This document shows positions 151 to 28,249 of a stretch of 32,000 nucleotides of DNA, in pieces (positions within the stretch are counted from its first letter, which is position 1; the number at the start of each line of letters is the position of its first letter). The stretch is from Candidatus Woesearchaeota archaeon (GTDB lineage Archaea; Nanobdellota; Nanobdellia; Woesearchaeales; DSVV01), in assembly GCA_016192995.1 (NCBI GenBank), contig JACPTB010000005.1, forward strand, positions 206,791-238,790, written 5' to 3'. The position numbers were made by a program, and so were the translations under genes. The notes under the pieces are model-generated. The model made no database searches and was not told where the DNA came from. It saw only the letters and a program-made list of their open reading frames with translations.

Positions 151-305
151 GAGTTTGTCGCATAATCTGCCACCATCAATATTGCGAGGCTTATCAAGTA
201 AAAGTATCGAGTACTTTTCGAGGTTCCAGAGAGAAAAGTACCATAGAGTAAATAATCAAAAGCCGAGCCGATGGTGGCTGCCGAAGGCATTTATGCGACA
301 AACTC
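151..305 (-). repeat. Diverged long-hairpin element (variant G) carrying the conserved stem-loop module in reverse orientation
   Basis: Outer 15-bp inverted repeat gagtttgtcgcataa (151-165) / ttatgcgacaaactc (291-305). Second stem gccaccatc (169-177) / gatggtggc (270-278). Central hairpin gtactttt (211-218) / aaaagtac (234-241) with loop cgaggttccagagag, the reverse complement of the loop seen in the other copies. Confidence 0.7.
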
Positions 306-313
306 AGAAAAAC

Positions 314-635
314 GTACGTAATAAGTTTTTCATAGTTTTAGCGCCGGTTCAGCTTTTGAAGTGTATTTTAATTGGATTTTTCTCTCTGGAACTCCGAAAA
401 ATCCTCGAAATATAGATAAGAAGAGCTTCACAAAAGTAGGCGCTAAAACCTAAAGAGAACTTTGCAAAATACTCGCAAAGCTCGGGTTACTGCCAGTTCG
501 CATTTCAATAATTTACCCTAAGGAAAAAATTCCCATTGTAATTTCCTTTTTTCTTGCTCCTTGTATCGAAAATGCTCACGAAATTGGCAGTAACCATAAT
601 TTTGCAAAGTTCTCTAAAGAAGACTTATTACGTAC
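314..635 (+). mobile_element. Composite MITE-like element: GTACGTAATAAGT(C) terminal-repeat class with core hairpin 335-449 and a second element nested inside it
   Basis: Left end gtacgtaataagt at 314-326 and right end gacttattacgtac at 622-635. Core runs gttttagcgcc (335-345) to ggcgctaaaac (439-449). It aligns with the 154-155 bp copies at 6486 and 8940 except for a roughly 160-bp insert. No clear TSD. Confidence 0.75.
454..615 (+). mobile_element. Nested hairpin element (17-bp inverted termini) inserted into the element at 314-635
   Basis: agagaactttgcaaaat (454-470) pairs with attttgcaaagttctct (599-615). Inner stem is ggttactgcca / tggcagtaacc. Central 36-nt module at 520-555 is shared with the elements at 1126 and 24087. 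This insert is absent from the sister copies at 6486 and 8940. Confidence 0.65.
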
Positions 636-1080
636 AACTCTTTATTCCTTCTATAACCAACGCTTTATTCAAAGGACAAACTTGTTCTTTACCATCATTA
701 AGAATAATAGGGGTTATTTTAAGCTTTTCAAGGTTTCCTAATAAAGACTGGTCATAAGGAATATTTAATTTTTTAGTCTCTGACTTACCAAAAAAAGCTT
801 CTAAATCACGATTATCCACATTTCGTGATCCCTGGAGGGTTAATTTAAACTTTCCAAGTTCCTCTTTAGGACCATTTTCAAGCGTTACTTCAATAGTGCC
901 TGTTTCATCATTGAAGCAAACTTTTGGATTGCCTTCAACTTTAGCTACATTTAAGATAACAGTTCCACATTCTCCAATACTCCCAGAATAGGTCATAATT
1001 ACTGCGCCTACAGCTACTGAAAAGGTGATAAGCAAGACTGTTGCTATCAAGGGTGATAAACCTTTTTTACGAAAAAACAT
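628..1080 (-). CDS. Archaeal type IV pilin-like protein (class III signal peptide)
   Basis: N-terminus MFFRKKGLSPLIATVLLITFSVAVGAVIM has basic residues, Gly and a hydrophobic helix typical of archaeal pilin/flagellin N-terminal domains. TATA-like tttataaa lies about 25-30 nt upstream. The last two codons and the stop lie inside the repeat terminus 622-635. Confidence 0.7.
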   Translation of the reverse strand: MFFRKKGLSPLIATVLLITFSVAVGAVIMTYSGSIGECGTVILNVAKVEGNPKVCFNDETGTIEVTLENGPKEELGKFKLTLQGSRNVDNRDLEAFFGKSETKKLNIPYDQSLLGNLEKLKITPIILNDGKEQVCPLNKALVIEGIKSCT

Positions 1081-1125
1081 GAAGGAGATTCTGAATGTAT
1101 ATCTTTATAAAGGTTTTGCAAAATT

Positions 1126-1287
1126 GGCTCTGCCATGAATGTAGTTTTTGGTGCCATACTGGTGATTATCCTTCAAATTAATACGTGGGAAAAAAGGAAA
1201 TTACAATGGGAATTTTTTCCTTGTTATAAATACGTGAGATAATCACGGCACCAAAACCCAGGCGTGAGCCGAGATTCATGGCAGAGC
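1126..1287 (-). mobile_element. Hairpin MITE-like element with GGCTCTG-type termini (variant D)
   Basis: ggctctgccatgaat (1126-1140) pairs with attcatggcagagc (1274-1287). Inner stems are tttttggtgcc / ggcaccaaaa and ggtgattatc / gataatcac. Central module at 1187-1222. It is homologous, in inverted orientation, to 24087-24251 but with different, mutually complementary termini. No TSD seen. Confidence 0.7.
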
Positions 1288-1296
1288 TATATAAAG

Positions 1297-1513
1297 GGCT
1301 CTGGTGAAAATCTTTCAGGTTTTAGCGCCGGTTCAGCTTCAAAGTGATTTAAATATCGGATTTTTCTCTCTGGCACTCCGAAAAATCCCCACAATGATAT
1401 AGAAAGAGCTTCACAAAAGTAGGCGCTAAAACTATACTAATCAAAGAAAGTGTTGAATAATATTTGACTTTCTTTGATGGTATATTGCTACGCAATACAT
1501 TTTCACCAGAGCC
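1297..1513 (+). mobile_element. MITE-like element with GGCTCTGGTGAAAAT termini, carrying core hairpin 1319-1432 plus an extra hairpin at 1441-1477
   Basis: ggctctggtgaaaat (1297-1311) pairs with attttcaccagagcc (1499-1513). It is flanked by direct repeats atataaag at 1289-1296 and 1515-1522, with one extra base (c1514) at the right end. Confidence 0.8.
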
Positions 1514-1558
1514 CATATAAAGTGAAGATTTATATATAAAAAAGATACCTACAAGTAT

Positions 1559-2640: not shown

Positions 2641-3231
2641 ATGGTTAAACAACAACTGTTAACAATAAAGAAGCCGGAAACAAATGAAGCTCATCAAAAA
2701 GTACTCTATTGGTTCTTTTCCTTTCCTGATATCAATATAGGGCTTACTGACTTATCTGAGGAGTTAGAAATTTCTAAAACAACTGCAAAAAACATTGTTT
2801 TAGATCTTGAAAAAAAAGGATTTCTAATTAAAAAAGTATATGGCAAAGCGTGGATTATTAGCTGCAATAAGCAACATCCATTTAATTTAACCCAAAAAAT
2901 AGCATTCAATTTATTGATGGTTTCTGAACTATATCACTATATGATAAAAAGCAAAATATTAGAGATCTTAGGAAATCCTAAAGCAGTCATACTTTTTGGC
3001 AGTTATAGAAAAGGAGATGATACAGAAAAAAGTGATATAGATATTGCAGTGGAAGTGGCAAATAGTACTGATTTAAAGATTATTGAACCTTTTAAATGGA
3101 ATAAATTTGGCTACAGAAAAAACGTGCCAGTTAATCTCCATATTTTTTCAAGAAATAAAATAGACATTAACTTATTTTCAAATATTGCAAATGGCATTGT
3201 GTTAGACGGATTTCTTGAGGTAAGACCATGA
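2641..3231 (+). CDS. wHTH-fused minimal nucleotidyltransferase (MNT-like, antitoxin-type)
   Basis: Contains the ILFGSYRKGDDTEKSDIDIAV motif (GS-x9-11-D-x-D nucleotidyltransferase signature). N-terminal region is helix-turn-helix-like. Overlaps the next gene by 4 nt (ATGA). Confidence 0.75.
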   Translation: MVKQQLLTIKKPETNEAHQKVLYWFFSFPDINIGLTDLSEELEISKTTAKNIVLDLEKKGFLIKKVYGKAWIISCNKQHPFNLTQKIAFNLLMVSELYHYMIKSKILEILGNPKAVILFGSYRKGDDTEKSDIDIAVEVANSTDLKIIEPFKWNKFGYRKNVPVNLHIFSRNKIDINLFSNIANGIVLDGFLEVRP

Positions 3232-3620
3232 GATATAAACGCCCTGACAAGAAAAATGCTTTAAGCATCCTTGAGGCATCCCAACGAGATATGAAGTTTA
3301 CCCAATCATTAGAGATATCAGAACAATCCGGTGCAACAATTGTAAGAAATGTGTATGAATCATTCAGGATGCTAGATGATTCATTATTAGTTGCAAAAGG
3401 AATAGAATCAGAAGATCATGTAACACCAATTAATGAACTGATGAAACTCAAAGTAAATACCGATAGACCAATCAATTTAGTAGATAATCTCAGGAGATTA
3501 CGGCATAATATTAATTATTATGGCTACCAACCTTCTGTTGAAGAAGTGAAAGAAGTAAAATCCATTGCAAATAGTCTTTTTGAACCTATAAAAAATGAAG
3601 TCTTGAAAAAAATTAAATGA
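3228..3620 (+). CDS. HEPN-like partner of the nucleotidyltransferase
   Basis: 130-aa, apparently all-helical protein translationally coupled to the NTase gene. C-terminal LRRLRHNINYYGY resembles the HEPN R-x-x-x-x-Y/H region. Assignment rests mainly on gene context. Confidence 0.55.
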   Translation: MRYKRPDKKNALSILEASQRDMKFTQSLEISEQSGATIVRNVYESFRMLDDSLLVAKGIESEDHVTPINELMKLKVNTDRPINLVDNLRRLRHNINYYGYQPSVEEVKEVKSIANSLFEPIKNEVLKKIK

Positions 3621-3637
3621 TTAATGGAGGAATAACT

Positions 3638-4027
3638 ATGAAAAACCCAATAGTACATTTTGAAATACCTGCAGATAACGTTGAACGAGCAAAAAAATTT
3701 TATGAAAAAACCTTTGGATGGGAAATAACAAAATTTACGATGGAAGGAGGAGATTACTGGATCGTGAGAACAACTGAAGTAGATAAAAACATGATGCCAA
3801 CATCACCGGGAATAAATGGAGGTTTAATGCAGCGTAAAAATCCTAGTCAACCGTTTATGAATTATATAAGTGTCGAATCCATTGATAACATGTTAAAAGT
3901 AGTGGAAACAAATGGCGGAAAGATATGTATGCCTAAAATGGAGATTGGGAAAGGCATGGGATGGATTGCTGCATTCCAAGATACAGAAGGCAATCTTATG
4001 GGATTGCATCAAGAAGAGAAAAAATAA
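3638..4027 (+). CDS. VOC / glyoxalase-bleomycin resistance family protein
   Basis: N-terminus MKNPIVHFEIPADNVERAKKFYEKTFGWEI is a classic VOC start. GGAGG lies upstream of ATG 3638. The ORF track start at 3617 is an alternative. Confidence 0.8.
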   Translation: MKNPIVHFEIPADNVERAKKFYEKTFGWEITKFTMEGGDYWIVRTTEVDKNMMPTSPGINGGLMQRKNPSQPFMNYISVESIDNMLKVVETNGGKICMPKMEIGKGMGWIAAFQDTEGNLMGLHQEEKK

Positions 4028-4058
4028 GTATGGGGAGAAAAGAATAAATTAATGGGTA

Positions 4059-4430
4059 TTATATCTTCTCAACTTTCTTCCATAGGTAATAAGATACAAA
4101 CAACACTGCTAAAAATACCAAAGGGAATATCATACCTAACACATCACGATTTACAAAGTAAAATGATGCAGAAGCACTTATATAATCAATAGTAAAACCC
4201 GCGTAAGCCCATTCTTTAACAGCTTTGAATTTTGTTTGAATAATTGCAATAGAACCTAAAATTTTTGCCACACCAAGAATAATAAGAAAATAAACGGGAT
4301 ATCCCAACAATTTCATCACCTTTAGAGCTTGTTGATTGGGAAATAATTCAGCTATACCTGAAAACAAATTAGCAAGACAAAAAATAATAGTAACAGTCCA
4401 ATAGAGTATTTTTATTGTTTTTGGGGTCAT
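4059..4430 (-). CDS. DoxX-like membrane protein
   Basis: Four hydrophobic helices. LLGYPVYFLIILGVAKILG and KEWAYAGFTIDY match the DoxX_2-type pattern. Confidence 0.7.
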   Translation of the reverse strand: MTPKTIKILYWTVTIIFCLANLFSGIAELFPNQQALKVMKLLGYPVYFLIILGVAKILGSIAIIQTKFKAVKEWAYAGFTIDYISASASFYFVNRDVLGMIFPLVFLAVLFVSYYLWKKVEKI

Positions 4431-4476
4431 AGTGTTATGGTTCTAGTTAATATTTATAACTTTTTTGAATTTCTGT

Positions 4477-4704
4477 TTACTCTACAAATTTAAATCTCTG
4501 CATTTTTTTTCCATCAACAATTACCGCCTCAGTAAACTCTTCAACCGGTCTAACCCATAATGCATAATTCCCATATTCAGGATGATTATAAAGTCCGCGA
4601 TAGACAACTAATTCCTGTTTAGTTTTGTGATGTTTTGCAATACCAAGTACTTCATAGAAATTACCCTGGTAATGCTGGTATCTGCCAAGAGGGAGTTTGG
4701 ACAT
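4477..4704 (-). CDS. DUF1653 protein
   Basis: YQHYQGNFYEVLGIAKHHKTKQELVVYRGLY...WVRPVEEF matches the DUF1653 pattern. Confidence 0.75.
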   Translation of the reverse strand: MSKLPLGRYQHYQGNFYEVLGIAKHHKTKQELVVYRGLYNHPEYGNYALWVRPVEEFTEAVIVDGKKMQRFKFVE

Positions 4705-4775
4705 AATTTATGCACCTGTTTTAATTAAAGATACTTCTCAAAATCTTCAGTATCCACTTTTGCAAGTTCTAATAT

Positions 4776-4979
4776 TCATTTTAATGTCCCTATCTTAATT
4801 TCACTATGATTTGGAACAACAGTCCCTACAGTTCCACCAGGAGTTTCTTTCTTTAGAACAATATGACTTCCTTTTTGACGAGCAATCTGAAATTGAAATT
4901 TGTTGCATAATATTTTAACACATTCTTTGCCTGAAATCTTCCGAAATTTCCGCAACTTAAGCAACCTCAAAGGTAGCAA
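4776..4979 (-). CDS. hicA: HicA-family mRNA interferase toxin, ended early by an in-frame TGA (family-like tail continues to 4725)
   Basis: Core is QKGSHIVLKK...VPNHSEIKIGTLK. After TGA (4776-4778) the same frame reads ILELAKVDTEDFEKYL then TAA at 4725-4727, resembling the usual HicA C-terminus. The real start may be TTG at 4955, just after the hicB stop. Confidence 0.7.
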   Translation of the reverse strand: MLPLRLLKLRKFRKISGKECVKILCNKFQFQIARQKGSHIVLKKETPGGTVGTVVPNHSEIKIGTLK

Positions 4980-5154
4980 GAATAGGATGACTTTTTTCTT
5001 TCAAAGGAAATTCCTCTAAATATAATTCTGTGGCTTCCTTCAGGTTATCTATCGCTTCTTCAATAGTATTTCCCTGGCTAACAGTTCCAATCTCCGCACA
5101 TTTAGCAATATACATGTCTTCATCTTTTTGGATTATTGCGGTGAATGTTTCCAT
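4957..5154 (-). CDS. hicB: HicB-like (UPF0150) antitoxin
   Basis: METFTAIIQKDEDMYIAKCAEIGTVSQGNTIEEAIDNLKEA is the typical HicB/UPF0150 fold signature. It sits directly upstream of hicA. Confidence 0.8.
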   Translation of the reverse strand: METFTAIIQKDEDMYIAKCAEIGTVSQGNTIEEAIDNLKEATELYLEEFPLKEKSHPILATFEVA

Positions 5155-5210
5155 GTTCTATTGAATGTGATACTGATATATAAAGATTACGAGAAAAAAT
5201 TTATAATAAG

Positions 5211-5831
5211 TTGATTAATAAAGCAAATATGATCCTCAACAAGATAGAATTTATGATGATGAATAATCCCCTCAGAGCTTTTATTCAAAAAAAGATTGAG
5301 ATTAAACGATTGAGAAAATATGCAACGTTGGAAAAAGATAAGATTGTTCTTGAAATTGGCTGTGGGAATGGCAACGGAACTACATTAATCAAACAATATT
5401 TTTCTCCAAAGAAAATATATGCCATAGACTTGGATCCTAAAATGATTAGTCTTGCAAAGAAAAAACATAACCATGATAAAACTATTAATCTTTCAGTCGG
5501 TAATGCTGCAAAGCTAAAATTTAAATCCAATCAATTTGATGCAGTTATTGATTTTGGTATTATCCACCATATTCCCAACTGGAAAACCTGTTTAAAGGAA
5601 ATTAAAAGAGTGTTAAAGCCAGGTGGAGAATTAATTTTAGAAGATTTGTCAATTGAGACATTTAGTACGCCTTTTGGCAGAATATTGAAACGAATTCTTA
5701 AGCATCCTTATGAGCGTATGTATACTCAGGAACAGTTTACGGTAGAACTGCAGAAATTAGGATTTAAAATAGAAACTAAAAAAGAATATAATCGCGGAAT
5801 TAAGTATTTTCTGATAATTGCTAAGAAGTGA
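5211..5831 (+). CDS. Class I SAM-dependent methyltransferase
   Basis: VLEIGCGNGNGT (motif I), AIDLDPKM and LKPGGELILED. Start uncertain: the ORF begins with TTG and several in-frame Met codons follow. Confidence 0.8.
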   Translation: MINKANMILNKIEFMMMNNPLRAFIQKKIEIKRLRKYATLEKDKIVLEIGCGNGNGTTLIKQYFSPKKIYAIDLDPKMISLAKKKHNHDKTINLSVGNAAKLKFKSNQFDAVIDFGIIHHIPNWKTCLKEIKRVLKPGGELILEDLSIETFSTPFGRILKRILKHPYERMYTQEQFTVELQKLGFKIETKKEYNRGIKYFLIIAKK

Positions 5832-6220: not shown

Positions 6221-6485
6221 GTTGTTTTGAGATTAAGAGAGTATTTATTAATATTATGTTTTTATTAAAAATAAGAGTTAATGGCTCTTCTTGTGAGTGT
6301 GGGGGGTTGGTTTAGAATCAGTTTGAAGAGCCACCCTCTTTATTACTAGACTATCTTAAGGTGTAACTAGTATATAAATGTTACTATTTAGTATACTGGT
6401 TTGGTGCGCAATATAGAGACTTTCAGCTAACCTTAGTTTTATTAAAGATGGCAAAAACTACATTTTCTACAGAGCCTCAAGAACG

Positions 6486-6639
6486 GTACGTAATAAGTCT
6501 TTCATAGTTTTAGCGCCGGTTCAGCTTTTGAAGTGTATTTTAATTGGATTTTTCTCTCTGGCACTCCGAAAAATCCTCGAGATATAGATAAGAAGAGCTT
6601 CACAAAAGTAGGCGCTAAAACCCCAGACTTATTACGTAC
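6486..6639 (+). mobile_element. Intact 154-bp hairpin MITE (GTACGTAATAAGTC class) with perfect 8-bp TSD
   Basis: Terminal repeats at 6486-6499 and 6626-6639. Core at 6507-6621. Direct repeat caagaacg at 6478-6485 and 6640-6647. Confidence 0.85.
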
Positions 6640-6654
6640 CAAGAACGTACATAA

Positions 6655-8174: not shown

Positions 8175-8303
8175 TTAAGCATTTTTCAGCAAGTAAGCTC
8201 GTGCCGTAATTTCAACTAATGCTCCAAGAGGCAGTTCCGCTACTCCAACCATTGTTCTCGCTGTTTTAGGTATTCCCGATTCAATATATCCTTCGGATTC
8301 AGG
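8175..8303 (-). pseudogene. RidA/YjgF-family C-terminal remnant (about 40 codons), truncated at a repeat-element boundary
   Basis: KTARTMVGVAELPLGALVEITARA matches the conserved RidA C-terminus (PARS-V-V-LP-VEI-A). The N-terminal two thirds are missing. The ORF upstream of 8303 is element sequence. Confidence 0.6.
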
Positions 8304-8431
8304 TAGCGCCAGTTCAGCTTTGAATGTGATTAAATATTGGATTTTTCTCTCTGGCACTCCGAAAAATCCCCATCGTAAGAATAGAAAGGCTTCAGAATAT
8401 AGGCGCTAAAACCCCAGGACTTATTACGTAC
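8301..8431 (+). mobile_element. 5'-truncated, diverged copy of the GTACGTAATAAGTC-class MITE
   Basis: Right terminus gacttattacgtac at 8418-8431 and ggcgctaaaac at 8402-8412. Hairpin module at 8339-8369. Left terminal repeat absent. The right end touches the stop codon of the gene at 8432. Confidence 0.75.
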
Positions 8432-8896
8432 CTATTCAGGAGTATCTTCGCTCTTAACTCTTCTTTCTTTAGGGATATAATTAATAATTTTTTTATCAAT
8501 TAACTTACCGCAGCCAAGATAGTTATCGCCATATTTCATAATAAACATTGTTCTGCCTTCCTGGTCAAGAGATATATCATATCCTTTTACCCATAACGCA
8601 ACAACACCCTTTTTCATCTCAAACACATTTTTGGTTGCGGTTTTACCAACTAATTGCGTTCCTTCAATAGAAAGCCGCAATTCAGTTCCTGACATTTGCC
8701 CAAAATAGAGGCCAAGAGAATTGATGCGAAGCTTGCTGAGATCAACTTCACCAATTTGCCGGTTAATAAGATAAATTCTGTTTTCTGCATTCACAAAAAA
8801 GACATAATCTCCTTCTAAAGAAGCTCCCCATTGTTTTTCAAGAACAGACTGCAATTCTTTTATTTTCTTTTTATTGAGAATCTTAAGATTAAACAT
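8432..8896 (-). CDS. Nip7-like (pre-PUA + PUA) RNA-binding protein
   Basis: Start set at MFNLKILNKKK (ATG 8896) because the track ORF's first 54 codons read through a repeat element. Architecture and size fit archaeal Nip7/COG1374. TATA tttttata (minus strand) at 8918-8925. Confidence 0.5.
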   Translation of the reverse strand: MFNLKILNKKKIKELQSVLEKQWGASLEGDYVFFVNAENRIYLINRQIGEVDLSKLRINSLGLYFGQMSGTELRLSIEGTQLVGKTATKNVFEMKKGVVALWVKGYDISLDQEGRTMFIMKYGDNYLGCGKLIDKKIINYIPKERRVKSEDTPE

Positions 8897-8939
8897 AGCG
8901 ATGAAAACGCTTTCTCCTATAAAAATGTTAATGTTTATG

Positions 8940-9094
8940 GTACGTAATAAGTCTTCTTTAGGTTTTAGCGCCGGTTCAGCTTTTGAAGTGTATTTCGATT
9001 GGATTTTTCTCTCTGGAACTCCGAAAAATCCCCGATAAATATACGAGAGGAGCTTCACAAAAGTAGGCGCTAAAACCCCAGACTTATTACGTAC
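8940..9094 (+). mobile_element. Intact 155-bp hairpin MITE (GTACGTAATAAGTC class) with perfect 8-bp TSD
   Basis: Terminal repeats at 8940-8953 and 9081-9094. Core at 8962-9076. Direct repeat tgtttatg at 8932-8939 and 9095-9102. Confidence 0.85.
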
Positions 9095-9129
9095 TGTTTA
9101 TGTGAAGAAATATTCTTAAAGTTGTTCGA

Positions 9130-13353: not shown

Positions 13354-13486
13354 GGCTCTGGTGAAAATCTCGGCATAGCCTCGGTTTTGGCATCAGTTCG
13401 GCTTTTGATGTATTTATTTTATTGGATTTTTCTCTCTGGCACTCCGAAAAATCCTCACTTATGAAATTAAAGAGCCTCACAAAAAG
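13354..13486 (+). mobile_element. 3'-truncated hybrid MITE copy (GGCTCTGGTGAAAAT left end plus hairpin module)
   Basis: ggctctggtgaaaat at 13354-13368, followed by ctcggcatagcctcggttttgg as in the element at 24087. Hairpin module at 13424-13454. Right arm ends in agagcctcacaaaaag. No right terminal repeat. Overlaps the last two codons and stop of the gene at 13477. Confidence 0.7.
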
Positions 13487-13686
13487 ATGATCAATCCAAG
13501 AAGAAAAGGCAATGATAATCCTAGTGAGGCTAACATTTTAAGCTGGAATGAATATGCAACTGTTTGTTCTGTGAGCCATATTGTTAAAAGCAAAGAAATA
13601 AAACTCACAGCAATTATACCTATATAAGTTAGATTATGTTGGGCATCAATCTCTAAAATAGTTTTTTCCTTCTCAAACTCATACAT
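13477..13686 (-). CDS. Small two-helix membrane protein
   Basis: Start taken at MYEFEKEK (ATG 13686), which overlaps the upstream stop (ATGTATGA coupling). Two hydrophobic helices. Confidence 0.45.
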   Translation of the reverse strand: MYEFEKEKTILEIDAQHNLTYIGIIAVSFISLLLTIWLTEQTVAYSFQLKMLASLGLSLPFLLGLIIFL

Positions 13687-13897: not shown

Positions 13898-14130
13898 AGA
13901 ACTTATGTTTCTTTTATCATTTATATATCTTATGAGAAAAAAAGATAAAGATTTTTGGTGGAATCGGAAATCCTTACTTATTATTTGAAAACAATATTTA
14001 AACCAAACTTAATTTTCCGAAATATTTTTGGTTTATTCGGAAATTTATTCCAACATTTTCTTTACTTTTTTCTTATTTAACAATCTTAACTTAAGCATGT
14101 TGTGGGATAATAGTTTCCTCTATAAAAATG

Positions 14131-14871
14131 TTAATGTTTATTCCACAATTTCATGAAGAACTCTCTATATCTTTTTGCCATTCTTTTCGATTCAATTTCA
14201 AAACCAATAGCGGCAGGTTCCCATAACGTGATAATGATCCGGTTCACGCCAATTCCTATCGCATGCGGAAAAGGCAAATTTATGAATTTTAAACGGATAT
14301 TTTTTCTTTCTTTAAACATAGCAAGATATTTTTGTTTTGTTGAAATGTCTGCAATACCTAGCGTTGATATTTTTCTGTCTTCTCGTTTGGCATGAAGGTT
14401 TTGAAAGAATAACGCTAAAGCATCTAAATCAACAGTTGGTGCTCCTATAAAATAGAAATATTCTTTTTTTGGAAGTTCTTCTAAAATATTTTGAAATGCC
14501 GTAACGATGCTTTTTGTTCCATGATATATTTTTGCCGATTCTTCATCATGTGTACCAAGCAATCCTTGCAATTCTTTAACCAGCACTTGAGCTTCTTTTT
14601 TGTTTTTTTCCAATGCTTGTTCTTGCTCAGCTATATACTCCATAATATTAACTGGATTAGTCGGATGAAACTTTTTGACATTGTTTTCAATAGTATAGGT
14701 AACAAACCCTTTCTGTATCAGTCTATCTAATATGAGGTAAATTTTTGAGCTTGAAATACCGCATTTTTCCATTATTGGTCCTGTTGAAGCTGTTCCTAAT
14801 TTGATTACTGATTCATACACACGTATTTCTCCTTCAGTAAGTCCTATCTTCCGCAGGATTTCTTTATTCAT
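14131..14871 (-). CDS. TrmB-family transcriptional regulator
   Basis: N-terminal wHTH LTEGEIRVYESVIKLGTASTGPIMEKCGISSSKIYLILDRLIQKGFV. Length and C-terminal domain are consistent with TrmB. Confidence 0.8.
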   Translation of the reverse strand: MNKEILRKIGLTEGEIRVYESVIKLGTASTGPIMEKCGISSSKIYLILDRLIQKGFVTYTIENNVKKFHPTNPVNIMEYIAEQEQALEKNKKEAQVLVKELQGLLGTHDEESAKIYHGTKSIVTAFQNILEELPKKEYFYFIGAPTVDLDALALFFQNLHAKREDRKISTLGIADISTKQKYLAMFKERKNIRLKFINLPFPHAIGIGVNRIIITLWEPAAIGFEIESKRMAKRYREFFMKLWNKH

Positions 14872-15987: not shown

Positions 15988-17171
15988 ATGAAAATAAATA
16001 ACATTTATGCAATAAAATCTACCGTGATTGTTTTAATTTTAATCGTAATATTTTTGAGTAGTCTTTCTTGCAGCAAAGCATCTACAATAATGACTAATAA
16101 TAATGATATTGCTAAAGAAAATAATGAGGAACGCATTACCATTGGCGTCATTCAATCATTAACGGGAAGTGGCAACCAGCAGGGAAATAATGCAAAACAC
16201 GGTATTGAACTTGCGGTTGAACATATTAATCAACAAGATGGTATCAACGGAAGAAAGTTGCAAATGATTTACGATGATGAAAAATGTGATGCTAAAATTG
16301 GTTTGAGCATTGCGCAAAAATTTATTGAAGTAGATAATGTTTCTGTTATTATTGGTCCAGGATGTTCTGGCACTTCGATGGCTGTAGCTCCTTTAGCTGA
16401 ACAAAAAAAGTAATTATGATCACACCAGTATCATCAGCAAAAGATTTAAAGTTTGCAGGAGATTTTATTTTCAGAAATCGAGTTGCTGGAGATAAATTTA
16501 GTGAAGAAATTGCGCAATTTGCTATGGCTGAGTTAAAAGCAAAGACTGCTGCCATTTTATACATTAATCAAGAAAATGGTATTACTTATCGTGATGCTTT
16601 TATCAATACATTTGATCAATTAGGTGGCATAGTTGTAATTAGTGAAGCCTATGAAAAAGGTGAAAATGATTTTAAAACCCAATTAACCAAAATAAACACT
16701 AAAAATCCTGATGTTATTTATCTTGCTGGTCAAGAACCTGAGTATGCTATAAAGCAAATTAAGGAGTTAGGAATTACAGCACAACTTCTTGGACCATTAA
16801 CCATTGAAACACCACAATTGCTCAAAACTGCAGGTCAAGCTGCTGAAGGAATTTATTATTCATATCCTTTATTTGATCCTTATGAAGGAACTGAAAAAAT
16901 GAAACAATTTAACCAACTATATCATAGTAAATTTGGGGAAGATGCTGAAGGTTATGCTGCTTATGGTTATGATGCAACTATGGTAATTGCTGATGCTTTA
17001 AAACAGTGTGAACAGAACGATACTCTGACTATATGTATTCGTGATTATCTCTATCATATTAAAAATTATGAAGGAGTAACTGGCAATATCAGTTTTGATG
17101 AATATGGTGAAGTTATACAGCCATTAACAGTGAAAACAGTTAAGGATGGACAGTTTGTCAAACTGAAATAA
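15988..17171 (+). pseudogene. LivK/Peripla_BP_6-type substrate-binding lipoprotein split by a frameshift in an A7 run
   Basis: ORFs 15988-16413 and 16416-17171 are the N- and C-halves of one SBP (GVIQSLTGS...IIGPGCSGTSMAVAPLAEQKK | VIMITPVSSAK...FRN). The second frame is open from 16401. A 1-nt shift inside caaaaaaag (16402-16410) joins them. Lipobox-like LSSLSC. Confidence 0.65.
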
Positions 17172-23874: not shown

Positions 23875-24086
23875 TTTCCATCTTACGAACTAATGTGAGT
23901 AGCTTATAAACCTTACTTCAACATGTCCAGTGGAAACGCTAAATTCGGAAAGTTTTCAAATAGAATGAAACCTTTTCGGAAATCCATGAATAAAATGATT
24001 AAATTATAACTTAAATCTCCACTGGACATATGGCTGTCTACTGCTTGGTATCTTGCTTCTGCATATTCTACACACCCCACCTTTCC

Positions 24087-24251
24087 GGCTTCGGTGAAAA
24101 TCTCGGCATAGCCTCGGTTTTGGTGCCGTGATTATCTCACTTATTATATATAAGAAGGAAAAAATTCCTATTGGAATTTCCTTTTTTCTTGTACGTTAAT
24201 TTGAAAGATAATCACCAGCATGGCACCAAAAACTACATTTTCACCGAAGCC
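24087..24251 (+). mobile_element. Intact hairpin MITE with GGCTTCGGTGAAAAT termini and 8-bp TSD
   Basis: ggcttcggtgaaaat (24087-24101) pairs with attttcaccgaagcc (24237-24251). Direct repeat acctttcc at 24079-24086 and 24253-24260, with one extra base (a24252). Inner stems ttttggtgcc / ggcaccaaaa and gtgattatc / gataatcac. Central module at 24155-24190. Confidence 0.8.
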
Positions 24252-24335
24252 AACCTTTCCGAAAACCTTAAATATAACCAACAGACACTGCATAACTCTC
24301 AAAACAAAATAAGAAGAAATCAAGTACATGAAGTA

Positions 24336-24770
24336 ATGTGGCAAGATGAAAACATGAGCGTAGATGACGTAACAACAGATGAAGTAACAAGCTATGATAT
24401 GAAATCAAGAAAACCTTCTGTAGATTCTTCAGTTTCTGATAAAACTCCAGTGCAGTTCTATGGAAAACGAGTCATGATAAGGGATGTTTCTGATCCTAGA
24501 AACGTAAATATTGTAGGAGTTTTGCATCCTGATAATGGAGAACTATCCTGCCGTTTAGATTTTCTCGATCAAGGTGTTGCAAAAACAACGTACTTTGATC
24601 CTGATGCATTAAGAGTTAAAGAAGTAGATGGTAAATATACCTTATTAACTGCAGAAAGAAGTTTAGAAACAGTTTCAGTACATGGTGTAGCAGGGGCGCT
24701 TAAACGATTAGATCTTTATAGACGCGGTGTTCGTGTTCATAACACAGTTTATCCAGCAAATCATATCTAA
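24336..24770 (+). CDS. Hypothetical protein
   Basis: Start moved to ATG 24336 (MWQDENMSVDD) because the track ORF begins inside the MITE. No family recognised. Confidence 0.4.
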   Translation: MWQDENMSVDDVTTDEVTSYDMKSRKPSVDSSVSDKTPVQFYGKRVMIRDVSDPRNVNIVGVLHPDNGELSCRLDFLDQGVAKTTYFDPDALRVKEVDGKYTLLTAERSLETVSVHGVAGALKRLDLYRRGVRVHNTVYPANHI

Positions 24771-24782
24771 ATATTTTTATCT

Positions 24783-25652
24783 TTAATTATGCGCGCCTCT
24801 TGATTTCAATACATCAAAGAAAGTATCGAATATTGGTTCATCAGTAGTTACCTGATTAAAACTTGCATGTAACCCAATGCAGATATCATGGATTTTAGAA
24901 GAATGTTCATTTAATTTCTGCTGGTATTTTTCACGCAATCGCTTGCTCATAAACGTATGCAATACCTGATTTGATTCAGCGTCATATAATTTAACATCTC
25001 CTTCAAAATTCAATTCTTTTTCAACACGATCAAGAACTTGGATTACTTTAATCTCTTGTTTTCCTAAACGCAATAATCCTCGTTCGATTTCTTCTGGGGG
25101 AAACAGAAAATCGCTTGCAAGCACAATTAATGACCTTCCCTTTAATGTTTTTCTTAATTTAACCATAGCATCCTCAAAATTAGAAACACCTTTCGCAGAG
25201 ATTTCATTAATATTATCAATTACTGATACCATTTGCGACATTCCTCTTCGCGGCCGTAAGGTATTAAGCTGCGCAGAAAAGGTAGAGAATTGGAATTTAT
25301 CATTCTCTTTCATAGCAAGATACGCAAACCCAGCTCCAATCATACCGCCGTATTCATACTTATTCAACGGTTTGCCAAAATTCATGCTTGCGCTAGCATC
25401 GACAATAATATACACGGTTAGAGTTCTATCTTCTTCATATTGTTTGACATATAATTTATCAGTTCTTCCAAGAAGCTTCCAATCAACAAGCCTTATATCG
25501 TCTCCAGCGACATAATTTCTGTAATCTTTGAGTGTTAATCCATGCCCAAAAGCAATAGATCTTCTTGCGCCGGAGTAATTAGAAGTAACCCTCTTATTGA
25601 CAATTAAACTAAATCTATTCAATTGCTCTAAAAAATCAGTTTTGATGGCCAT
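24783..25652 (-). CDS. DUF58 (vWA-fold) protein, MoxR partner
   Basis: GHGLTLKDYRNYVAGDDIRLVDWKLLGRTDKLYVKQYEEDRTLTVYIIVDASASM is the DUF58 signature. It starts 3 nt after the MoxR stop. Confidence 0.85.
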   Translation of the reverse strand: MAIKTDFLEQLNRFSLIVNKRVTSNYSGARRSIAFGHGLTLKDYRNYVAGDDIRLVDWKLLGRTDKLYVKQYEEDRTLTVYIIVDASASMNFGKPLNKYEYGGMIGAGFAYLAMKENDKFQFSTFSAQLNTLRPRRGMSQMVSVIDNINEISAKGVSNFEDAMVKLRKTLKGRSLIVLASDFLFPPEEIERGLLRLGKQEIKVIQVLDRVEKELNFEGDVKLYDAESNQVLHTFMSKRLREKYQQKLNEHSSKIHDICIGLHASFNQVTTDEPIFDTFFDVLKSRGAHN

Positions 25653-25655
25653 TAT

Positions 25656-28172
25656 TTATTTAAGCTCCTTTTTGAGGATCTCACGGATAACATCATCAGT
25701 TGTCATACCTTTTCTCTCTGCTTCAAAGTTAAGAACAATTCTATGCCGCAGGACAGGGTAGGCTAATTTTTCAATATCTTTTGCGCTAACATGGCTTCTC
25801 CCGGTGATTAATGCTTGCGCTTTCGCAGCTAAAATCAAGCCAATGCTTGCTCGAGGTGATGCGCCATATTCAATATGATCTTTATCATTTCTTGTCGCAG
25901 CAACAATTTTAACCACTGCTTTTTGCAAATCATCAGATAAAGGAACCTGCCTGGTAAATTTTTGCAAGGCTAAGAATGAATTCTTGCCCAAGATCTTTCT
26001 AATCTCTGGATCCTTTAATTGTTTTGCATATCTATTAACTATTTCTATCTCATCATCAAATTTAGGATAGTCTATTTTTATTTTTAATAAAAACCTGTCT
26101 GTTTGCGCTTCAGGCAAAGGATAGGTGTTATGATTTATGCCACAACCTCCGAACCCTGCTATGTAATTTTGATGTTCAGGAACGGTTAATCCAAAAGCCA
26201 TGCCTTTTGAAGGAGCGTACTCAATAGATGCAATGCCATCATAATAAATATCTTCACTGAGCAAGGCTTTGCAATACTCAAGTAATTGTTCAGCCTCTTC
26301 AAGGCATTTTTCATATTTTTGTTCCAGTACTTGTTTTATTGCTGATGCAGAATGAGGAGTGCTTCCCTGATAAAGATTCCATACTTGATTTTTTGAAATT
26401 TGCAATTGTTGAGCAATTGCCGTCATAGGGAGTCCAATATTTGCTGCAAAATACCTTGGATTTTGTTCAAGTTCTGCGGTAAACGCTGCTTCTTTTCGAT
26501 AGTTAATTTCATGGTCTATATCATCAACAAATTGCTGGAGAGAATTAACTGCCATTACTGTTTCTCCTTCTTTTATTCCTTTATAACTCCCATACCAGCT
26601 TCGTTCAGTGAAGGTTTTTCTCCCTTTTAATGTGTGGAAACTGTTTAAACCAAGCATTTCTACTAATGATAAAATTACCCTTCGAGAAACAGGAACTACG
26701 CGGAAGCTTGAGGCAATAGTTCTTTGAAGATTGATTCCCATCATTTTTTCCTGAGATAGCCATCCTATGTTCTTCAAAAATGCAACGCAATCTTCTCCTT
26801 GAATTTTTAGCCTAAAAATTCTCCCATCAAAACGAGGATATGAAATAATGCCTTCACGCAATAACATATAAGAAATGAGGTTTATATTATGTTCACTTTT
26901 TTGGGTGAAAACAATTCTATTGTCTCGTAGTGATGATTCAAGCGCAATAAATGTTTTTAAAAATTCTCTATTCATTGCATCAGGAAAAGATAAAAACCAT
27001 GACGGAATTTGTTTATCTTTTCCACCTTTCACACCAAATCTAATACGAAGATATTCTACCAATGGTTTAGCATAGATAGTAGCGTATCTGCACCCTCTGT
27101 TTAAAGTTACTGCAGGGTTAAATCCATATTTTTTTGATATAGTTACAAATCGATCAAGCACTTCAGGATAATTTTTCTGCACTGCTTGAACTGATTTTTC
27201 GCCAATATAACCATCAGATAATAAAAATCCTATCCAAAACGCAAAATCTTCATCAAAATGTATCTCCTTTGTCAACGGTTTTTGTTCCATTTGTGCTATG
27301 GTTTCTTGATGAGTTGGTATTTTTACAAAGTTAGGGTCAACAGAAATTTTTCGTGGATTAACTAAATAATCATATTTTGTTAAATCTTCTGCTTTTTTCC
27401 ACATTATAATCCCATGTTCATTGACAAGGAAAGGATGGTTTTTAGTTACTGTTATCTTTTTTCCTGTTTTTGTAGTAATCGTTGCCATCTCAGCATTATA
27501 AGGAAGTGTATATAAATAACAGGATTGTTGTTCTAATTTACCGTGAGGATTCAAAGCAAGGGTGTAGGCATTAAGCTGATATAATTTTATTCCCTTCTCA
27601 TCTTCTGCTATGCAATTATCGCCAGCAAGAGCTAGAAGTTCATTTCCCGTCTTAAGCTGGCCATTGATAAATACTGTCTGATCAAGCGCTAAGCTTCCTT
27701 CCTGCTCAATGGGGTTCTGTGTTGCTAAAACAAAGAAAGGCTGGGGGAGTTCATAGGTTTTATTTCCAACAGTTACTTGCTTCTCCTGCATTGCCTCTAG
27801 CAGAGCTGATTGTGTTTTAGGCGTTGCCCGATTGATCTCGTCTGCCAGGACAATATTGGCAAAAACAGGACCTTCTTGAAATTTAAAATACCTTTTTCCT
27901 TGATGTTCTTCAATAATCTCTGTCCCTGTAATATCACTTGGCATTAAATCAGGGGTATTTTGAATTCTTGAAAACTTCATATCCATAACATTGGAAAGAG
28001 TTTTAATCGTAAGGGTTTTACCTAACCCCGGGTAACTCTCCAGCAAAGCATTGCTTTCGCATAACATTGCAATAAGAATTTGTTCAACAACATCACGCTG
28101 CCCTACAATGACCTTCTCAATCTCCATAAACACAGCGTCAAATGTTTTTTTAAGCTTTTCTATTTCAATCAT
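25656..28172 (-). CDS. MoxR-family AAA+ ATPase interrupted by a 523-aa intein
   Basis: Exteins are ESYPGLGKT (Walker A), VLADEINRA (Walker B), VLATQNPIEQEG | TYPLPEAQTDRF and YGASPRA. Joined they give 315 aa, the normal MoxR length. Confidence 0.9.
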   Translation of the reverse strand: MIEIEKLKKTFDAVFMEIEKVIVGQRDVVEQILIAMLCESNALLESYPGLGKTLTIKTLSNVMDMKFSRIQNTPDLMPSDITGTEIIEEHQGKRYFKFQEGPVFANIVLADEINRATPKTQSALLEAMQEKQVTVGNKTYELPQPFFVLATQNPIEQEGSLALDQTVFINGQLKTGNELLALAGDNCIAEDEKGIKLYQLNAYTLALNPHGKLEQQSCYLYTLPYNAEMATITTKTGKKITVTKNHPFLVNEHGIIMWKKAEDLTKYDYLVNPRKISVDPNFVKIPTHQETIAQMEQKPLTKEIHFDEDFAFWIGFLLSDGYIGEKSVQAVQKNYPEVLDRFVTISKKYGFNPAVTLNRGCRYATIYAKPLVEYLRIRFGVKGGKDKQIPSWFLSFPDAMNREFLKTFIALESSLRDNRIVFTQKSEHNINLISYMLLREGIISYPRFDGRIFRLKIQGEDCVAFLKNIGWLSQEKMMGINLQRTIASSFRVVPVSRRVILSLVEMLGLNSFHTLKGRKTFTERSWYGSYKGIKEGETVMAVNSLQQFVDDIDHEINYRKEAAFTAELEQNPRYFAANIGLPMTAIAQQLQISKNQVWNLYQGSTPHSASAIKQVLEQKYEKCLEEAEQLLEYCKALLSEDIYYDGIASIEYAPSKGMAFGLTVPEHQNYIAGFGGCGINHNTYPLPEAQTDRFLLKIKIDYPKFDDEIEIVNRYAKQLKDPEIRKILGKNSFLALQKFTRQVPLSDDLQKAVVKIVAATRNDKDHIEYGASPRASIGLILAAKAQALITGRSHVSAKDIEKLAYPVLRHRIVLNFEAERKGMTTDDVIREILKKELK
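26127..27695 (-). mobile_element. Intein with LAGLIDADG homing-endonuclease domain inside the MoxR gene
   Basis: Begins with Ser (SLALDQTVFING, block A-like) and ends GCGINHN, followed by Thr +1. Contains FWIGFLLSDGYIG and EFLKTFIALESS LAGLIDADG-type motifs, plus an HTH-like segment IGLPMTAIAQQLQISKNQV. Confidence 0.85.
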
Positions 28173-28185
28173 GGGTAAAACCTCT

Positions 28186-28249
28186 TTTTAGTCAAGTGAG
28201 AGACCTTCAGCCTCCTGTAACCGGTTGAAGGTCTCTCACTTGACTAAAA
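28186..28249. other. Perfect 24-bp inverted repeat (16-nt loop) spanning the junction between the 246-aa gene and the MoxR gene
   Basis: Positions 28186-28209 are the exact reverse complement of 28226-28249. The stop codon (28207-28209) and the last 14 codons of the upstream gene lie inside the structure. The MoxR ATG (28172) is 14 nt from its base. Confidence 0.8.

Follow-up and report, generated by a model that had tools for sequence, protein, structure and literature searches.

Introduction

The MITEs (miniature inverted-repeat transposable elements) of prokaryotes, such as SM1-SM4 of Sulfolobus and those of haloarchaea, are short, non-coding, multicopy intergenic elements that have terminal inverted repeats (TIRs) and target site duplications (TSDs) of fixed length, form hairpins and carry no transposase of their own; in most of those described, the cis-acting constraints lie at the ends and not in the middle. 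Repeats of similar appearance are known in bacteria: Correia/NEMIS in Neisseria, ERIC/IRU in enterobacteria, and BOX and RUP in pneumococcus are imperfect palindromes of ~100–200 bp that fold as hairpins, sit beside genes and can affect transcripts, with nested or internal insertions in ERIC and a modular make-up in BOX. The present work concerns a family of hairpin repeats in a 32,000-nt stretch of DNA from a Candidatus Woesearchaeota archaeon (GenBank assembly GCA_016192995.1, contig JACPTB010000005.1, positions 206,791 to 238,790 of the forward strand), which was analysed as a whole and is called the window below. This family shares all of the MITE properties listed above, but it occurs in DPANN genomes of less than 1 Mb, has no match in Rfam, and is at least as conserved in its middle, a structured core with an apical loop common to several TIR types, as at its ends. 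From the bacterial palindromes it differs in hosts, sequences, TSDs and TIRs, and we know of none among them reported at a fixed spacing from the archaeal transcription factor B recognition element (BRE) and TATA box.

The repeats are very probably non-autonomous DNA transposons, that is, MITEs, of this Woesearchaeota genome and members of a superfamily spread through Nano/Woesearchaeota. The initial annotation of the window considered the density of the repeats unusual for a small archaeal genome. High density had, however, already been noted in bulk: a 2024 census, in its account of MITE densities, places “a Woesearchaea genome” with 105 MITEs/Mb among the highest values in archaea (PMC11602168), so density alone is not new. 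At the same time, the family itself appears to be undescribed, as no description of it was found in the literature on DPANN/Woesearchaeota MITEs, a comparison that did not extend to the sequence lists of PMC11602168. Two of its features are unusual, namely the structured core, more conserved than the ends across TIR types, and the fixed position at the edge of promoters.

Repeat content of the window

The window has a G+C content of ~34%, is archaeal and includes the genes for ribosomal protein S8e, aIF5B and TrmB; the closest named homologues of its DUF1385 protein all belong to Woesearchaeota or Nanoarchaeota. Comparison of the window with itself yielded 11 copies or fragments of hairpin repeats, seven with a core designated A and four with a core designated B (Table 1), which have mutual identities of 64–97% and differing TSDs. 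All of the repeats listed in the initial annotation, which had put their recurrence at ten or more, were recovered, with boundaries shifted by 0–3 nt. The loop motif of the A core was found seven times in the window against 0.00 expected, and a profile hidden Markov model (HMM) of this core gave exactly seven matches (E = 1e-20 to 6e-25). In the spacer between the first partial gene and the gene at 628-1080, 477 of 537 nt are MITE DNA, and in the next spacer, up to the DUF1385 gene, 379 of 478 nt, so the near saturation of this intergenic DNA with repeats, as originally described, is real.

The elements are 154–217 bp long (322 bp for the composite one) and have no coding capacity, the open reading frames (ORFs) that overlap them being spurious extensions. 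Each of the eight intact elements folds from end to end into a single long imperfect hairpin (z = -6.0 to -10.6 against dinucleotide shuffles), as had been proposed for those between 151 and 1513; no such fold was obtained (z ~ -1) for the truncated copies at 8301-8431, which has lost its left end, and 13354-~13500, which has lost its right end, and 6448-6476 is a solo right end. A search of both strands of the window with the covariance models of Rfam 15 gave no match at the gathering score and none even at E ≤ 1, and a scan of the window for tRNA and tmRNA found none.

Transposon hallmarks, nesting and empty sites

Perfect or near-perfect TIRs of 14–17 bp bound all of the intact copies. Exact 8-bp TSDs, unrelated to one another in sequence, flank four copies in the window (1297-1513, 6486-6639, 8940-9094 and 24087-24251), and in the first and the last of these, which are framed by GGCTYYGG, the duplication lies one base off the right TIR. 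The 40 TIR-bearing copies gathered from all sources include 13 whose 8-bp TSDs are exact and 18 whose TSDs have at most one mismatch, against 1 in the shifted control.

The element at 314-635 had been thought to contain a nested repeat at 454-615. The insertion is real, although its coordinates are 457-612: this copy has a TSD of its own, CCTAAAGA versus TCTAAAGA, matching at 7 of 8 positions, and the right arm of 314-635, once freed of the insert and one repeat, has the sequence of the left arm of 8940-9094 in reverse complement, which makes 457-612 a true nested insertion. The wider idea of a modular family, built like a Russian doll, is correct for this one case. Elsewhere, the A and B cores within other frames have no TSDs of their own, and in the window both occupy near-identical GGCTYYGGTGAAAATCTCGGCATAGCCTCGGTTTTGG frames; the modularity therefore reflects subfamily structure, a common core under different TIRs (GTACGTAATAAGTC, GGCTCTGGTGAAAAT and GAGTTTGTCGCATAA here, GGCGKYATTGAAAAG in other genomes), and not repeated nesting.

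Comparison with related genomes revealed both occupied and empty sites. In the relative with 93% identity in DUF1385 (locus L152), the homologous promoter region contains TTATAAAG only once and lacks the A-type element, and thus provides the empty site for 1297-1513. At the position of 1126-1288 of the window, the same relative has a B-type right end with the flank/TSD GCAAAGTT, and locus L155 (74% identity) has a B-type MITE between GCAAACCC repeats, while in L153 and L154 (85% identity) the corresponding spacer is free of MITEs. The TIRs, the 8-bp TSDs, the lack of coding capacity, the dispersed intergenic copies and these occupied and empty sites justify the term “MITE-like” that the repeats had received from the initial annotation.

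Collapsed or chimeric contigs, the assembly artefacts that could have produced such repeats, have next to no probability as their source. It is true that short-read assemblies of the same strain break at the repeats, since six independent Logan assemblies start inside 1297-1513 and end inside 6486-6639. Nevertheless, these assemblies, obtained from six sequencing runs, reproduce the MITE/flank junctions, the copies are not identical and their flanks and TSDs are distinct, and the family is present in many unrelated assemblies. The strain is present in sequencing runs SRR12113383-SRR12113428.

The duplications also bear on whether the repeats could be single-strand hairpin elements moved by an HUH/Y1 enzyme that recognises the hairpin, like REP/REPIN with RAYT or the palindrome-associated transposable elements (PATEs) derived from IS200/IS605; elements of these kinds have neither TSDs nor TIRs. 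Such an origin would suit the conserved imperfect hairpins with their invariant mismatch and bulge (see below), and IS200/IS605 is the most frequent insertion sequence (IS) family in archaea (PMC13343696). However, the frequent 8-bp TSDs and the TIRs of 14–17 bp are taken to exclude elements of this type, a fixed short sequence 5' of the insertion point is absent, and no copy examined has a Y1 or TnpB gene beside it, so that we regard this origin as very improbable.

Occurrence in other genomes

One genome per species was scanned with the A-core loop motif, and 25 loci were found in ~14 metagenome-assembled genomes labelled Woesearchaeota, Nanoarchaeota and Nanoarchaeia, with some labelled Methanosarcinales; the A family is also present in low-GC metagenome contigs. 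The copies are always intergenic and lie in tight gaps between housekeeping genes, in every orientation, and the genes that flank the 25 loci have no mutual homology. These unrelated flanks and the free orientation identify a dispersed mobile element, and a conserved single-locus non-coding RNA gene is thereby ruled out. The main subfamily has a constant length of 161–165 bp and usually the TIR GGCGKYATTGAAAAG.

In viral contigs, the loop motif had no match, a relaxed motif had eight matches, none of them in a hairpin context, and a 16-mer of the TIR had only single matches at chance level. Viral origin or carriage of the family was rejected, as no real copy was found in the viral contigs searched.

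Records named “uncultured Methanosarcinales archaeon” carry the Woesearchaeota MITE family (locus L018 in OZ246410.1, as well as CAYVTQ01, CAZNFC01, CAZGTJ01 and CAYNCK01). The Methanosarcinales label looks doubtful, because OZ246410.1, a complete chromosome, measures only 774 kb.

Structure and variation of the conserved core

In an alignment of 31 copies, the A core has a constant length of 113–118 nt and consists of a basal stem, an internal loop, a 3' bulge AnATT and an apical 9-bp stem closed by a 13-nt loop, TCTMTCTGGAAC, which is conserved. In the internal loop, GGYTCRGC stands opposite GCYTCRC-AnATT, with Y-R and R-Y pairs that covary around a T·C/C·T tandem mismatch, and this mismatch is TC/TC in 30 of the 31 copies; an additional conserved segment, CTCRC.TTYG.TYGGG, is present in the 5' arm only. 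A reading of the internal loop as a K-turn was discarded, because the bulge lies two base pairs from the tandem mismatch, which is not canonical. In the proposed structure of the core, 96.5% of the cells are paired and both sides have changed in 18 of 26 pairs, values that none of 500 shuffles reached, and with slid partners only 38–49% of the cells were paired. The inner 24 pairs comprise 722 Watson-Crick pairs among 744; of the rest, only 5 are G·T and 8 A·C, and neither strand is favoured. With pairing so nearly purely Watson-Crick and so few G·T pairs, the pattern agrees better with a palindrome maintained as DNA than with a strand-specific RNA.

The loop motif had been the original search key, and the ascertainment was repeated without the apical hairpin, using the internal-loop motifs on metagenomes. 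This pattern is GC-rich, and the 120 stretches retrieved included ~100 chance matches in high-GC bacterial contigs and ~14 real elements. The apical hairpin was kept in 11 of the 14 real low-GC elements ascertained in this way, and the other three carry different apical modules. Changes in the apical stem are compensatory, AAAATTC...GAATTTT in some copies and ATTTTC...GAAAAT in others, around the loop. Mean pairwise identity is 82% in the hairpin and 54–56% in the two blocks of ~20 nt beside it, against 48% for random sequence of the same composition, that is, the two blocks vary freely and are essentially random. The same core was found under several TIR types (GGCGKYATTGAAAAG, GGCTTTGCYCGAAAAG, GGCTCTGTCCCAAAT, GTAMGTAATAWGTCT and GAGTTTGTCGCATAA), and it is conserved more strongly than the ends across these types.

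The composition of the two variable blocks differs on the plus strand of the element: in A-type copies, the 5' block (alignment columns 23-43) is T-rich, with 52% T and 24% A, and the 3' block (columns 75-93) is balanced, with 35% T and 33% A, a strand asymmetry in an otherwise palindromic element.

Two blocks of constant length (~20 nt) that differ in nearly every copy, set among conserved stems, recall the loops of the IS110 bridge RNA and could be guides that pair with target or donor DNA. The chance of this is, in our estimation, vanishingly small, and the reading was rejected, as the blocks match the flanks of their own copy no better than the flanks of other copies (mean longest shared k-mer 5.67 and 5.89, respectively); besides, TIRs and TSDs are not features of IS110, and an adjacent recombinase gene is absent.

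Insertion at the probable upstream edge of promoters

Target sites were analysed in 20 rebuilt empty sites and in 26 flanks with an outward-pointing gene within 130 nt. Hexamers resembling TTTAAA form symmetric peaks at -12/-14 and +14/+16, counted from the TSD start; the peak score is 3.6, compared with a mean score of 2.1 (sd 0.47). Such a hexamer is present at -12 or +14 in 12 of the 20 rebuilt sites, and insertions are concentrated 6–8 bp from the TTTAAA-like box, regardless of side or orientation. In 12 of the 26 flanks, 43–49 nt separate the MITE edge from the ATG of the outward gene, when ~1.4 such flanks would be expected from a uniform distribution over the 130 nt. The layout of such a flank is the element, the 8-bp duplication, 6–8 A-rich nucleotides, TTTAAA, ~24 nt and the ATG. 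Two copies in the window illustrate it: 1297-1513 is followed by TGAAGA, by TTTATATA at 1529-1536 and by the DUF1385 ATG at 1559, with 45 nt between element and ATG, and 8940-9094 lies 43 nt upstream of the Methyltranf_PUA ATG (~8896, minus strand), with TATAAAAA at 8918-8925. The orientation of the elements relative to the promoter is about even. Archaeal promoter geometry is well established and comprises the BRE, a TATA box centred near -26 and leaderless mRNAs; from this geometry and the spacing of TTTAAA and ATG we infer that the elements insert at the upstream border of the BRE/TATA promoters that serve leaderless genes, leaving the promoter intact.

Promoter-targeted transposons are known from eukaryotes, with Ty3 at Pol III start sites, Tf1 at Pol II promoters and mPing upstream of genes. 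The likeness is that insertions cluster at a defined spot next to a binding site of the transcription machinery and the gene stays intact; here, in contrast, the element is an archaeal DNA MITE, the case for targeting comes from 20–26 sites, and selection in compact genomes is the alternative.

The core could also be a functional module in its own right, a structured RNA or single-stranded DNA that acts as a protein-binding or regulatory hairpin and travels as cargo in several transposon frames; its promoter-adjacent spread would then give it a role for the host, as a terminator, an insulator or an element of 5' leaders. Much of the structure would suit this: the constant core length with covarying stems, the asymmetric features that hardly ever change (the tandem mismatch, the 3' bulge and the 5'-arm segment), an apical loop that stays conserved in the loop-free ascertainment next to random blocks, the sharing of the core by at least four TIR types and the fixed position relative to BRE/TATA. 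Moreover, both strands of the apical stem contain T-runs, and the mismatch, read on the opposite strand, is a tandem G·A. Yet a functional RNA is disfavoured by the few G·U pairs, which are not in excess on either strand (5 vs 8), by the absence of an orientation bias towards neighbouring genes (3 sense and 6 antisense in tandem contexts) and by the lack of an Rfam match; the core lacks a conserved promoter or terminator of its own, and in the same frames its place is taken by B-type and other apical modules. A cargo module of this kind is accordingly considered rather improbable.

A bolder combination would make the core a functional nucleic-acid module, recognised by a protein through the loop TCTMTCTGGAAC and the T·C/C·T internal loop and taken up by several transposon frames, with the elements actively targeted to the upstream BRE/TATA promoter edge, e.g. 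via DNA bound by TBP/TFB. We give it a small, though not a negligible, chance.

An 84-nt repeat was also observed beside 8940-9094, at 8855-8938, with a second copy at 14058-14141 (73% identity overall, 93% over 28 nt, TTTCTCCTATAAAAATGTTAATGTTTAT). Its first copy takes in a TATA-like box as well as the start region of the PUA-methyltransferase gene; the second is next to the TrmB gene and has no long ORF behind it.

Probable transposition mechanism and the search for a partner

The combination of the 8-bp duplication with TIRs points to a DDE transposase acting in trans, which would bind the TIRs, cut the target with an 8-bp stagger and insert the element. The conserved hairpin is most likely required in cis for mobility, since only transposition-competent lineages would leave copies. 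One possibility is that through it the short element doubles back, as a cruciform or hairpin, and its two ends meet; another is that the transposase or a bending protein binds to it.

As to the transposase family, TIRs that start with GGCTCTG/GGCG... together with the 8-bp TSD make an ISL3-like assignment most likely on sequence grounds. The ends of ISL3 type include GGCTCTGGTGAAAAT, GGCTCTGCCATGAAT, GGCTTCGGTGAAAAT and GGCTCTGTCCCAAAT, with 8-bp TSDs. For comparison, ISArsp7, a member of ISL3, has the inverted repeat GGCTCTTCGCGG...GGTGAAT and an 8-bp direct repeat (PMC6305408), and the likeness to ISL3 consists of TIRs beginning with GGCTCTG, GGCTTYG or GGCG, the 8-bp TSD and AT-rich targets. 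All 27 annotated IS families are reported from Nanobdellota genomes (PMC13343696).

Several results weigh against this interpretation or parts of it. No clear TSD flanks 151-305, 314-635 or the copy at locus L143. The window contains no transposase domain among its ORFs of at least 80 aa scanned with Pfam, in agreement with the earlier statement that it lacks a transposase gene; ~293 kb of low-GC loci, searched for inverted repeats at 600–3500 bp spacing, gave no full-length IS candidate; and the viral contigs yielded nothing real. The search for the autonomous partner suggested at the outset was thus negative in the window, in these loci and in the viral contigs, and the ISL3 assignment, one of resemblance in TIRs and TSDs only, is a lead, as no ISL3 transposase or full-length element was found among them. 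The GTACGTAATAAGTC and GAGTTTGTCGCATAA frames (GTACG... and GAGTT...) are unlike ISL3 ends. The strongly conserved apical loop under variable TIRs is not explained by the standard DDE mechanism, given that cis constraints usually lie at MITE ends. Finally, selection acting on very compact genomes, and not targeting, could be the source of the promoter-edge pattern, although the sites with plenty of free space (8940-9094, L001 and L103) lean towards targeting.

BLAST among the loci revealed no repeat longer than 300 bp except one coding duplication, and the 91 ORFs of related loci had only housekeeping families among the Pfam matches listed, in which families matched by a single protein are not included.

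Coordinates of the repeats and other features of the window

Table 1 Hairpin repeats of the window, with the position of the A core, the terminal inverted repeat (TIR), the target site duplication (TSD) and the folding score z against dinucleotide shuffles
Feature	Coordinates	Strand	State	A core	TIR	TSD	z	Remarks
Divergent A-type MITE	151..305	-	intact	165-282	GAGTTTGTCGCATAA	clear TSD absent	-7.8	E=6.5e-25
Core of 151-305	165-282	-						carries CCATCGGCTCGGC ... GCCTCGCAATATTGATGG, same in other genomes
Composite, A-type host MITE with B-type insert in right arm	314..635	+	intact	335-450	GTACGTAATAAGT		-8.9	host parts 314-456 and 613-635
Nested B-type MITE	457..612	+	intact		GAACTTTGCAAAAT	CCTAAAGA (449-456) / TCTAAAGA (613-620)	-6.2	
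B-type MITE	1126..1288	-	intact		GGCTCTGCCATGAAT	right-side TSD lost	-6.2	
A-type core in GGCTCTGGTGAAAAT frame	1297..1513	+	intact	1319-1434	GGCTCTGGTGAAAAT	next row	-7.2	right arm with extra hairpin
TSD of 1297-1513	1289-1296 and 1515-1522	+				ATATAAAG		1-nt offset from right TIR
Solo right end (TIR) of B-type element	6448..6476	+	solo end					self-comparison
A-type MITE	6486..6639	+	intact	6507-6623	GTACGTAATAAGTC	CAAGAACG (6478-6485 / 6640-6647)	-6.0	junction confirmed in L146
A-type MITE without left end	8301..8431	+	truncated	8299-8414	right TIR intact		-0.8	
A-type MITE	8940..9094	+	intact	8961-9078	GTACGTAATAAGTC	TGTTTATG (8932-8939 / 9095-9102)	-8.0	
A-type core in GGCTCTGGTGAAAAT frame, right end lost	13354..13500	+	truncated	13383-13498			-1.1	followed by small membrane-protein ORFs
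B-type MITE in GGCTTCGGTGAAAAT frame	24087..24251	+	intact		GGCTTCGGTGAAAAT	ACCTTTCC (24079-24086 / 24253-24260), 1-nt offset	-10.6	

ORF calls in the window are inflated by MITEs, as the ORF 8432-9058 runs into 8940-9094 and the ORF 24171-24770 into 24087-24251. The former is over-extended, its true start being probably the ATG near 8896 (154 aa); the true start of the latter is probably the ATG ~84 nt downstream of 24251.

The DUF1385 and S8e genes, adjacent in the 74% relative (L155), are separated in the window by ~3.3 kb (2641-5831), which contain a nucleotidyltransferase gene accompanied by a small partner ORF, genes for a glyoxalase-like protein, DoxX, DUF1653 and a methyltransferase, and, on the minus strand, the pair HicA/HicB (4776-5154); the 93% relative (L152) has a different, shorter gene set. 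This segment is a variable gene island between MITE-rich spacers.

Further along the window, the gene at 25656-28172 (minus strand) encodes a MoxR-type AAA ATPase (AAA_3, AAA_lid_2) into which an intein (Intein_splicing, residues 217-682) that includes a LAGLIDADG homing-endonuclease domain is inserted, and is followed by a DUF58/vWA gene at 24783-25652. A 64-nt palindrome at 28186-28249, at the junction of the MoxR and DUF7502 genes, has 27-nt arms that are 96% complementary and a 10-nt spacer; unrelated to the MITE family in sequence, it may be a terminator or another small repeat. The adjacent ORFs 15988-16413 and 16416-17171 (plus strand), in different frames, match the N-terminal (positions 2-93) and the C-terminal (106-342) part, respectively, of a single periplasmic binding protein (Peripla_BP_6), which indicates a frameshifted gene or a sequencing error.

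Significance for Woesearchaeota genomes

DPANN genomes of less than 1 Mb have almost no spare DNA, and yet in this lineage some spacers consist mostly of MITEs. In practical terms, these repeats fragment short-read assemblies of such genomes and over-extend ORF calls. With its constant length, structured core and hypervariable blocks, the family offers an alignable model for the cis requirements of MITE mobility, and its fixed spacing from BRE/TATA allows the idea of targeted or safe-haven insertion to be tested in archaea. Should the core prove to be a protein-recognised module and the elements to be actively targeted, the family would be the first in archaea to be described as promoter-targeted, and at the same time a portable element systematically placed before genes in streamlined DPANN genomes.

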